Assembly (NCBI GenBank): GCA_005191425.1
Contig: SUPR01000141.1
Location: 1-6,888 of the forward strand
Source of the DNA: Candidatus Helarchaeota ASGARD archaeon Hel_GB_B
GTDB taxonomy: Archaea; Asgardarchaeota; Lokiarchaeia; Helarchaeales; HEL-GB-B
Length of the DNA: 6,888 bases
Reading direction: 5' to 3'
How positions within the stretch are numbered: the stretch's first letter is position 1; every line of letters begins with the position of its first letter. The position numbers and the translations under genes are program-made. This document shows positions 939 through 6,888 of this stretch, piece after piece. A model generated the notes under the pieces. That model ran no database searches. It saw only the letters and a list, made by a program, of their open reading frames with translations, and was not told the origin of the DNA.

Positions 939-947
939 ATTATAGCA
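939..947 (-). promoter_or_regulatory. Extended -10 promoter (TGcTATAAT) for the PLD gene
   Basis: Perfect TGnTATAAT on the minus strand, 16 nt upstream of ATG 922; no clear -35. Confidence 0.6.
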
Positions 948-1043: not shown

Positions 1044-1052
1044 TGGTATAAT
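1044..1052 (+). promoter_or_regulatory. Extended -10 promoter (TGgTATAAT) for the 1082-3494 operon
   Basis: Perfect TGnTATAAT 29 nt upstream of ATG 1082; a second TATAAT at 1057-1062. Confidence 0.6.
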
Positions 1053-4244: not shown

Positions 4245-4253
4245 ATTATAGCA
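4245..4253 (-). promoter_or_regulatory. Extended -10 promoter (TGcTATAAT) for the 202-aa gene
   Basis: Perfect TGnTATAAT 33 nt upstream of ATG 4211. Confidence 0.6.
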
Positions 4254-4398: not shown

Positions 4399-4407
4399 TG
4401 ATATAAT
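4399..4407 (+). promoter_or_regulatory. Extended -10 promoter (TGaTATAAT), leaderless configuration
   Basis: TGATATAAT followed by exactly 6 nt (GTAGAC) and then ATG 4414; no SD. Confidence 0.65.
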
Positions 4408-4413
4408 GTAGAC

Positions 4414-5538
4414 ATGGAAGAGGAAATTCAAAAATTAAATAAAAAAGATTATAAGAAAATAGTAATTATAATATTTTTAATTTTATTAATAATTATAGGA
4501 ATTAGTTTTAATAGTGTAATAAGGCAAAATTATAGCTATAAATCACAACTTAATTTTTTGTCAAAAACAAATGAAGAATTTAATAATGCTAATAAAAATA
4601 AAGGTCTTGAAATTGAAATCTGTAACTCTTTAATTAATGAAGATGCGAAGAAAAAATGTTATTTTGCATATGCAATAGAAAATAAAAATGCTGATACTTG
4701 TTTTGGAATGGTTGATTTAACTAAAAAATATAAAACCGGCGATAGTAGCACATATCTTTATCCAGAGAATATATGTGGCAAAGAACTGTTCCAAATAATG
4801 GCTAATGAAGAATTTTGTAAGCAAGTGGAAGAAATCGCTTCAAAAACTCCTATGATTATAGATAGTTGTTATCGCGAAATAATTCCTAAAACATATAAAA
4901 TTGGAAAAGGGACTGTATTAACAAATGAAATAAAAAAACTATTAGATAGTGGTGAACAAATAATAGAAATAAAATTATTATCGAATATTAAATATCCAAA
5001 ATATGTTCATAATAATCAAGTGGAAAAATTTTTTCAATTAGGAAATTTTCAATTTGCATTAATAAATAAAAATAATGGTTTAAAATATATATCGAAAGCA
5101 ACTGGTTTTTCTGGTGTTATATATAAAGAAAAAAATAATGAAGATTGGAAAATATTTTTTGAAATAATAGACAAAGATGATTCTGGTAATAACCCTATTT
5201 ATCTATGGGATGAAGGAAATGAAATTTATATATTGATGGTTCAATGTTGTGGAGCAGGAAGTGGGGAAGGAACGGCTAAAACAATAAAAAGTAATAACGG
5301 TGGAAAAAGCTGGAATATTGATAAATGCTTTTATCACTACACTGGTTATCACCAATATATTTCTGATGGAAGTTATTTGCCTAAAGATTGTATAAGTAAT
5401 GGCAAATGTAATGGATTTATGATTAAAGAGTATTATTATAATCCAAATATAATGAAATTTGAAAATAAAGTTTTTGATTATAAAACCGATGAAAATAAAT
5501 ATTATATAGTTGAGGAGTGTAGTGATATAGTGCTTTAA
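4414..5538 (+). CDS. Membrane-anchored Cys-rich surface protein (374 aa)
   Basis: N-terminal TM helix (about aa 16-33); six Cys at 70-152 including C-x11-CY-x12-C as in the 437-aa protein; C-terminal domain with CCGAGSGEG, an Asp-box-like SNNGGKSW and four further Cys. Confidence 0.8.
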   Translation: MEEEIQKLNKKDYKKIVIIIFLILLIIIGISFNSVIRQNYSYKSQLNFLSKTNEEFNNANKNKGLEIEICNSLINEDAKKKCYFAYAIENKNADTCFGMVDLTKKYKTGDSSTYLYPENICGKELFQIMANEEFCKQVEEIASKTPMIIDSCYREIIPKTYKIGKGTVLTNEIKKLLDSGEQIIEIKLLSNIKYPKYVHNNQVEKFFQLGNFQFALINKNNGLKYISKATGFSGVIYKEKNNEDWKIFFEIIDKDDSGNNPIYLWDEGNEIYILMVQCCGAGSGEGTAKTIKSNNGGKSWNIDKCFYHYTGYHQYISDGSYLPKDCISNGKCNGFMIKEYYYNPNIMKFENKVFDYKTDENKYYIVEECSDIVL

Positions 5539-6370: not shown

Positions 6371-6379
6371 ATTATACCA
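6371..6379 (-). promoter_or_regulatory. Extended -10 promoter (TGgTATAAT), leaderless configuration
   Basis: TGGTATAAT followed by exactly 6 nt (AAAAAT) and then ATG 6364; no SD. Confidence 0.65.
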
Positions 6380-6457: not shown

Positions 6458-6462
6458 ATTTG

Positions 6463-6537
6463 CGGGAGTGACGAGGCTCGAACTCGCGACCTCTTGCGTG
6501 ACAGGCAAGCGCTCTAACCAAACTGAGCTACACCCCC
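6463..6537 (-). tRNA. tRNA-Asp(GTC); CCA not encoded
   Basis: GGGGGTG TAGCTCAGTTTGGTTAGAGC G CTTGC-CT GTC AC-GCAAG AGGTC GCGAG-TTCGAGC-CTCGT CACTCCC G: 7-bp acceptor (one G-U), D, anticodon and T arms all pair; discriminator G; followed by CAA rather than CCA. Confidence 0.97.
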
Positions 6538-6568
6538 ACTTCGCTGAAGCTTCGTGGGGCAGTCCCCA
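6534..6568. repeat. GC-rich palindromic (REP-like) element overlapping the tRNA 5' end
   Basis: CCCCAC-TTCGCTGAAGCTTC-GTGGGG-CAGT-CCCCA: two overlapping hairpins share the GGGG tract; the CTTCGCTGAAGCTTCG core resembles dispersed palindromic repeats I recall from CPR genomes. Confidence 0.5.
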
Positions 6569-6634
6569 TTTGACTATCAACAATTGGCTTGTTTTAAATA
6601 AAATAAAATAGCCGTTTTTGACTATCTGAAAATA

Positions 6635-6663
6635 AGAATAACACGCCTGTTTTTATGTGTCAA
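6635..6663 (-). promoter_or_regulatory. Sigma70 promoter for tRNA-Asp
   Basis: TTGACA (6663-6658), 17-nt spacer ending TGt, TATTCT (6640-6635); predicts a start near 6628 and a leader of about 90 nt. Confidence 0.75.
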
Positions 6664-6692
6664 GATTTTGGTATTTTTTGTAAAATAAATTG

Positions 6693-6731
6693 GACATAGG
6701 CCTTTGAAGGCTTTAAACTATGTCTTTTTTT
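6693..6731. terminator. Terminator-like bulged hairpin
   Basis: GACATAG-GCCTT-TG-AAGGC-(TTTAAA bulge)-CTATGTC followed by T7 on the + strand; weaker CAATTTATTTT tail on the minus strand. Confidence 0.55.
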
Positions 6732-6738
6732 ACTTTTG

Positions 6739-6800
6739 TGAAGAGGATTCCGATGTTAAACATCGGTTTGACGAGCATTAATCATGCTCCCATCTCTTCA
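6739..6800 (-). ncRNA. Candidate three-way-junction small RNA (unassigned)
   Basis: P1 TGAAGAG/CTCTTCA (6739-6745 with 6794-6800), CCGATGT/ACATCGG (6750-6756 with 6760-6766), GAGCAT/ATGCTC (6773-6778 with 6784-6789); all Watson-Crick. Minus-strand TGtTATATT (6814-6806) lies 5 nt upstream of P1. Confidence 0.5.
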
Positions 6801-6852
6801 TCTTTAATATAACACTTAGTTATTAAAACTAGATGAAAATAAAAATGTTTTT

Positions 6853-6888
6853 TTAAATTAAACTATTTATTTGTTCTTCTAATATTTG
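6853..6888 (-). CDS. Possible C-terminal end of a gene entering from the right edge (...QILEEQINSLI*)
   Basis: 11 open codons ending in TAA at 6855-6853 with an amphipathic-looking sequence; too short to assign. Confidence 0.3.
   Translation of the reverse strand, partial: QILEEQINSLI

Follow-up and report, generated by a model that had tools for sequence, protein, structure and literature searches.

The window analyzed here is a whole contig of 6,888 nucleotides. It probably carries, on its minus strand, the gene of a small non-coding RNA with its own extended −10 promoter, and the same RNA structure would also form the 3′ end of the mRNA transcribed upstream. Transcription was predicted to start most likely at about 6799-6801, at the first bases of the closing helix P1, from the TGTTATATT box. 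The RNA, about 120 nt in total length, would fold into a compact three-way junction (6739-6800), followed by a 14-nt A-rich single strand and by a bulged hairpin with a U-rich tail (6681-6724). In the sequence-only reading, the element was described as a stand-alone small RNA upstream of tRNA-Asp. The promoter-to-terminator unit stood up to the analysis, but it is probably also the 3′ end of an upstream same-strand mRNA in both lineages in which it was found. Similarly, the position before tRNA-Asp was correct for the window, but no tie to that gene was found, and tRNA-Asp is absent from the second locus.

The contig (C49) belongs to a 3.54-Mb assembly with a G+C content of 28%, in which ARAGORN predicted seven tRNAs in all. 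The tRNA-Asp was the sole tRNA or tmRNA predicted within the window. Neither a similar tRNA-Asp nor a similar upstream region was detected among the 40 Asgard-type relatives of the bin. Exact matches to the tRNA-Asp core were obtained from Patescibacteria and Gastranaerophilales MAGs, and in near-identical metagenome contigs the region adjoined bacterial recA, efp, and rpsF-ssb-rpsR. The RecA encoded beside the region shared 87-90% identity with that of G175, a 1.3-Mb genome that was the nearest reference by RecA, and 82-83% identity with those of Parcubacteria and Falkowbacteria genomes. Because of the bacterial tRNA-Asp core, the neighboring genes, the RecA identities, and the lack of a match in the relatives of the bin, the contig is assigned to Patescibacteria (Parcubacteria/Falkowbacteria-like) and is considered mis-binned into an Asgard archaeal genome. 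A Patescibacteria origin had been guessed from the letters alone, and the RecA, the tRNA-Asp, and the neighbor genes agreed with it despite the archaeal bin. The features of this contig represent bacterial contamination in an Asgard bin and are not to be taken as archaeal.

The upstream gene runs off the contig end, and the window holds its last 11 codons and TAA stop (6853-6888, minus strand; stop at 6853-6855), so this same-strand neighbor was not visible to the sequence-only reading. It was completed by a metagenome contig (L041) that was 100% identical to window 6462-6888 and continued 1.3 kb further. This contig was found by a P1-anchor pattern scan of metagenomes, which gave one true match and five chance matches. 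The completed ORF (L041 447-1349) encodes a 300-aa lipoprotein with a lipobox signal peptide, belonging to a family that is widespread and conserved in Patescibacteria. The junction starts 52 nt past the stop of this same-strand gene, and the unit ends just before the tRNA-Asp promoter. A simple terminator scan found no terminator between the lipoprotein stop and the junction. The lipoprotein gene thus lacks a terminator of its own, and therefore the structure is probably also the 3′ end of its mRNA. The tRNA-Asp promoter, TTGACA-17-TGtTATTCT (6635-6663, minus strand), is separate from the RNA unit, as had been read before, and the same promoter layout precedes tRNA-Asp in three other lineages (L047, L030, and L039).

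The secondary structure was consistent with the earlier description, and direct reading of the minus strand confirmed three perfect helices joined by linkers of 4, 6, and 4 nt. P1 pairs 6739-6745 with 6794-6800 (7 bp). The second helix, which is the 3′ hairpin, pairs 6750-6756 with 6760-6766 (7 bp, 3-nt loop), and the third, the 5′ hairpin, pairs 6773-6778 with 6784-6789 (6 bp, 5-nt loop). All 20 pairs of the junction core were Watson–Crick. Furthermore, the 5′ hairpin (6773-6789) was extended by pairing of 6790-6792 with 6769-6771, including a G.U pair. In each lineage, this extension carried the hairpin 3-4 pairs further into the junction strands, and the G.U pair was always there. The A-rich linker CAAAAGUAAAAAAA (6725-6738, 14 nt) is single-stranded, with predicted partial pairing to the U-tail. 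It is followed by the terminator-like hairpin (6693-6724), composed of an outer stem of 7 bp (6693-6699 with 6718-6724), a 6-nt 5′ bulge, and a 4-bp apical stem, with a minimum free energy of −11.2 kcal/mol and a z-score of −3.8. The U-rich tail CAAUUUAUUUUA (6681-6692) is the predicted 3′ end. The linker and the hairpin had both been noticed behind the junction, and both were conserved in G175.

The folding energies were compared with those of shuffled sequences. The minimum free energy of the 130-nt stretch was −36.0 kcal/mol on the minus strand (z −5.5) and −35.6 kcal/mol on the plus strand (z −4.75), and none of 200 shuffles matched it. The 63-nt junction alone reached −24.7 kcal/mol on the minus strand (z −5.05) and −21.5 kcal/mol on the plus strand (z −3.8). 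As a regional null, 150 dinucleotide shuffles of 6540-6888 were folded in every 63-nt window on both strands. The best energies had a mean of −13.7, a standard deviation of 2.3, and a minimum of −23.1, and none of the 150 reached −24.7. The fold is real and is not a chance outcome of base composition. A z-score no better than that of shuffled sequence had been named as a point against the element; the values obtained, about −5 to −6, were clearly better.

The extended −10 box TGTTATATT was present on the minus strand at 6806-6814, where the sequence-only reading had placed it. It ends 5-7 nt before P1, and no −35 match was found upstream of it. Each of the window's six other transcription units likewise had a box of the form TGnTAnnnT upstream, at 939-947 (minus), 1044-1052 (plus), 4245-4253 (minus), 4399-4407 (plus), 6371-6379 (minus), and 6635-6643 (minus), and five of the six were TGnTATAAT. 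They lay 15-40 nt before the unit starts, or about 100 nt in the case of tRNA-Asp. This form therefore appears to be the usual promoter form in the window. The window held 39 matches to TGnTAnnnT, compared with 25.7 expected from shuffles. Such boxes turn up roughly every 350 nt on each strand, so position alone is weak evidence. The 12-nt GTGTTATATTAA, which covers the box region, was identical in G175 and had the same spacing to P1, while the AT-rich DNA further upstream could not be aligned between the two. In the most diverged strain, L066, the box read TGcTAcatT: the TG, the TA, and the final T were kept, and only positions tolerated in an extended −10 had changed.

At the other end of the unit, a hairpin with a U-rich tail was found in both lineages. 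The simple terminator scan made no call on either strand, and the U-tract is interrupted. The G175 hairpin has the same shape (a 7-bp stem, a 5-6-nt 5′ bulge, and a short apical stem), and its outer stem differs from that of the window by one compensatory change, A-U to G-C. The homology with G175 stops within about 12 nt past the hairpin, just after the U-tail, where the G175 sequence is AAUUUUUAAUUG. Because the homology spans only the box to the U-tail, the conserved block corresponds to a putative promoter-to-terminator unit of about 135 bp, with an RNA of about 120 nt.

The element was nearly unchanged in seven contigs from different samples. Contigs of this region derive from JGI Ga0164318 and 3300025152, ENA ERZ23491052, ERZ23491059, ERZ2433807, ERZ27227322, and ERZ23499183, and NCBI GCA_029935855.1. 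Among strains, 2 sites varied in the 122-nt RNA, whereas the non-coding DNA around it, 193 nt in all, had 11 variable sites (Fisher p 0.065). L066, which shows an overall difference of about 3.6%, had one private change in the RNA, at loop position 6782, and this was the sole strain-level change in the junction. The one further change in the RNA region was located in the apical stem of the terminator and was common to L066 and three other contigs.

A more distant homolog was found in G175 (L073, about 1511-1645). In a blastn search of 315 genomes of the whole order, it showed 71% identity over 138 nt, from the promoter box through the junction and linker to the hairpin. When a full-length covariance model was derived from the window sequence only, the G175 copy scored 69.8 bits (E 1.5e-13 locally), and the same single-sequence model, run blind against 150 genomes, recovered it at E 1.6e-11. 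The G175 linker AAAAAAAUAAAAAAA was nearly identical to that of the window. Moreover, each homolog folded separately into the same architecture, with z-scores of −5 to −6 in both lineages.

The covariation alignment was model-made and comprised the window type, two strain variants, and G175. In it, 96% of the pair cells were canonical, and 13 of the 34 pairs showed changes on both sides, compared with a mean of 3.2 in column shuffles (0 of 500 as high) and 0-2 in slid-partner controls. Between the window and G175, 17 pairs differed and 14 of the 17 were still canonical, 13-14 of them by two-sided change (null 0.37, binomial p 2e-4); this is one independent comparison, between two lineages, in an alignment fitted to the structure. 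The column identity was 54% for paired and 65% for unpaired positions. Paired columns were less identical than unpaired ones, which is the pattern expected of helices maintained by shape. The alignment indicates that compensatory changes have preserved the structure in an independent homolog, and that the RNA structure, not a coding frame, is conserved. A homolog search in Patescibacteria with a covariation test had been proposed as a check; it yielded the G175 homolog and helices with compensatory changes.

The two copies lie at different loci. In G175, the RNA unit follows the gene of a CDGSH iron-sulfur protein and faces a convergent SHOCT gene, and no tRNA lies near it. An 81-aa SHOCT membrane-protein gene and the RNA unit stand tail-to-tail across a shared hairpin (L073 1603-1915). 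For the neighbor gene of G175, the relatives gave one identical locus, L102. G175 retains the recA-to-rpsF (RecA-to-S6) block, from which lipoprotein, RNA, and tRNA are all missing. What precedes the unit in either lineage, at a distance of 50-65 nt, is a same-strand gene lacking its own terminator.

The minus strand is very likely the strand of the RNA product. It is favored because the order of promoter, junction, and terminator fits only there, and because of the conserved G.U pair of the extended 5′ hairpin, which is found in all copies and is possible on the minus strand only. Not all strand-diagnostic pairs agreed with this, however. Two mismatches would be G.U on the other strand: one, A.C, in the 3′ hairpin of G175, and one, C.A, in the apical stem of the terminator in four of the seven strain contigs. 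In addition, the G175 copy folds better on the other strand (−36.3 compared with −31.5 kcal/mol).

The distribution of the element was narrow. It was a single copy in the assembly, by both BLAST and the covariance model, and there was one copy in G175. G175 was the only match of model R2 among the 40 nearest relatives of G175. The full-length model R3 gave, beyond G175, only a bare terminator and a match inside tuf in 150 genomes, and blastn with both copies as the query gave only A-run noise beyond G175 in the 315 genomes of the whole order. A strict pattern of promoter, P1, and linker matched G175 only among 401 class-level genomes, with 0 control matches. The junction-only model R1 returned chance matches inside coding genes from 150 genomes and missed G175 too. 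No match was found in viral contigs. Overall, about 700 Patescibacteria genomes were searched and contained no further carrier besides G175. Therefore, the element is either young or fast-evolving.

Related loci were also compared. Among other species with this gene order, the closest is represented by L047, whose lipoprotein is 65% identical. It keeps the order of lipoprotein and tRNA-Asp, and at the syntenic spot the junction was absent and a plain terminator followed the stop. The distant lipoprotein loci had neither tRNA-Asp nor the element, and eleven tRNA-Asp loci of Patescibacteria and Gastranaerophilales had the tRNA alone in common. The family as known thus appears to consist of two closely related lineages that carry it at different loci.

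The element was compared with known families and other identities. Against Rfam 15, only the tRNA-Asp passed in the window. Over the element, the best scores at E ≤ 10 were 13-18 bits, compared with thresholds of 44-55, and the result was the same for the G175 copy. The earlier failure to match a catalogued RNA family was thus borne out for both copies by the cmscan-type search. A hammerhead ribozyme was rejected, as the CUGAUGA/GAAA core is missing; the junction strands are AUGG, GUCAAA, and AAUC in the window and AAGA, UUUUAA, and UAU in G175. A leader of tRNA-Asp or of another fixed downstream gene was also rejected, since tRNA-Asp has its own promoter and the next gene in G175 is convergent. 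The neighbors differ between the two lineages, and therefore a cis-regulator of one downstream gene was ruled out. A small coding frame was dismissed because the 30-aa plus-strand frame and the short minus-strand frames were not conserved in G175. A dispersed intergenic repeat (REP/MITE-like) did not fit one copy per assembly or genome.

In the proposed RNA, P1 would close the 5′ end and the junction would serve as a stable scaffold. The surfaces that contact an RNA or protein partner in trans may be the conserved unpaired parts: the A-rich linker, the UUUA loop, and the junction bases AA and AUC. Some small RNAs of enterobacteria, such as MicL and DapZ, are linked to a 3′-UTR, have an internal promoter, and end at the same terminator as the upstream mRNA. 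The element likewise lies behind a same-strand gene, has its own promoter-like box past the stop, and, as read here, would use one terminator for both the mRNA and the small RNA. Unlike MicL and DapZ, its body is a closed three-way junction rather than a linear seed with a terminator. Furthermore, its upstream gene differs between the two lineages and its host is a Patescibacterium. The element is also similar to orphan structured non-coding RNAs, for instance the raiA motif, in being a compact multi-helix unit from promoter to terminator with covariation. Compared with the raiA motif RNA, which is a wide family, it is much smaller, is known from just two close lineages, and matches no Rfam model. 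Another layout is that of the par type I toxin-antitoxin locus of Enterococcus, where RNA I and RNA II form a convergent pair sharing a bidirectional terminator. The tail-to-tail arrangement of the RNA unit and the SHOCT gene in G175 resembles it; SHOCT proteins are not known to be toxins. Unlike par, the window copy has no convergent partner, the tRNA promoter being there instead.

Several other explanations were weighed against a small RNA gene. It is possible, though doubtful, that the junction and the hairpin exist only as the tail of an mRNA and that TGTTATATT is no active promoter. The structure would then act in cis, ending transcription and blocking 3′ exonucleases, on the lipoprotein mRNA in the window and on the CDGSH mRNA in G175. 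This would agree with the short distance to the same-strand gene in both lineages, with no terminator-like site between, and with the plain terminator that occupies the same position directly after the stop in L047. However, the 12-nt −10 box had no changes and kept its distance to P1, in contrast to the unalignable remainder of the spacer, the homology begins at the box and not at the stop codon, and a junction of 63 nt far exceeds the needs of a terminator. A rather unlikely extension of the RNA-gene reading is that of a self-contained, relocatable gene cassette in ultra-small bacteria, comprising the promoter box, the three-way-junction RNA, and the bidirectional terminator. Such a cassette would move between the 3′ ends of unrelated genes, supply their terminator, and make a scaffold RNA that binds a partner. 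Relocation could also take place at the level of DNA only, as a mobile hairpin-rich cassette that inserts at gene 3′ ends, with the helices reflecting single-stranded DNA or cruciforms, or merely a recent common origin. We consider this improbable. The presence of the element at separate loci in two genomes that are closely related (RecA 87-90%), its absence from the RecA-to-S6 synteny of G175, and the T-rich direct repeats flanking the unit in both lineages are consistent with it, and so is the fact that both strands can fold, as the 20 junction pairs of the window copy are all Watson–Crick. On the other hand, the element was single-copy in every contig set and genome examined, no transposase or recombinase was located nearby, and the flanking repeats are low-complexity T-runs that do not abut the homology limits. 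The conserved G.U pairs and the promoter box indicate RNA, and about 45% of the stem positions differ between the copies, so a recent transfer is ruled out.

A product of the plus strand, either an antisense RNA or the 30-aa frame at 6720-6812, with the hairpin and a U7 run as its terminator, is very unlikely. The cleanest U-run (7 U) does follow the hairpin on that strand, two polymorphic or diverged pairs are G.U on that strand only, and the 30-aa ORF spans the junction. Nevertheless, the terminator would precede the junction and would have nothing upstream to terminate, because tRNA-Asp belongs to the opposite strand and is set off by a bidirectional terminator of its own. No plus-strand promoter box was conserved in G175, the ORF was shortened to 12 codons there, and the compensatory pattern is that of helices and not of codons. 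Hardly any likelihood is left for a riboswitch or attenuator of read-through into tRNA-Asp, or for a self-cleaving ribozyme. The order of a junction as the aptamer and then a terminator hairpin is that of a transcriptional riboswitch. In particular, the purine riboswitch aptamer (RF00167) resembles the element in that a terminator hairpin comes after a P1-closed three-way junction of about 65 nt. However, no Rfam model, RF00167 included, scored at E ≤ 10 for either homolog. The junction strands are short and mostly unconserved and hold no hammerhead core; after helix extension they measure 1-4 nt, compared with about 8 nt in RF00167, and with loops of 3-6 nt a loop-loop kiss is impossible. Moreover, the conserved promoter of tRNA-Asp lies between the hairpin and the tRNA gene, and with a convergent next gene in G175 there is no regulated gene downstream for control. 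Compared with these explanations, a minus-strand small RNA gene that doubles as an mRNA 3′ end remains the probable reading.

On the comparisons made here, the element is regarded as a new RNA family among bacterial small non-coding RNA genes that is missing from Rfam. Patescibacteria are uncultured symbionts with tiny genomes of about 1 Mb and little space for non-essential DNA. A literature search found no paper on small RNAs of Patescibacteria. Therefore, a conserved structured RNA with its own putative promoter offers a handle on RNA-based regulation in this group, with its reach limited to the two closely related lineages that carry it among the genomes searched.

Some further features of the region were observed. 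The T-rich repeats around the unit were located at L041 1357-1367 and 1512-1520 (window about 6835-6845 and 6682-6690) and at L073 1490-1498 and 1635-1643, and the G175 repeat, TTTTTAATT, was exact. Such repeats may have arisen by target-site duplication when a cassette relocated, or simply by chance, the DNA being AT-rich. In the tRNA-Asp region (window 6590-6663, minus strand), a small hairpin, ATAGTC-N6-8-GRCTRT, comes no more than about 10 nt after the promoter (TTGAC-N17-TGtTAnnnT), together with a U-run. This arrangement was seen in four Patescibacteria lineages (the window, L047 5049-5118, L030, and L039), and a second GATAGTCAAA copy lies near 6571-6580 of the window. The hairpin may be a conserved leader hairpin, or the arrangement may reflect tandem promoter duplicates. 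Just upstream of the real tRNA-Asp, L047 carries a worn partial copy of its 5′ half (5131-5165). In addition, L041 (end 1740) and L065 (end 1827) stop exactly at the tRNA-Asp 3′ end, the contigs L062-L064 end inside tRNA-Asp, and from L061 5753 onward the genes behind tRNA-Asp differ from those in the window.
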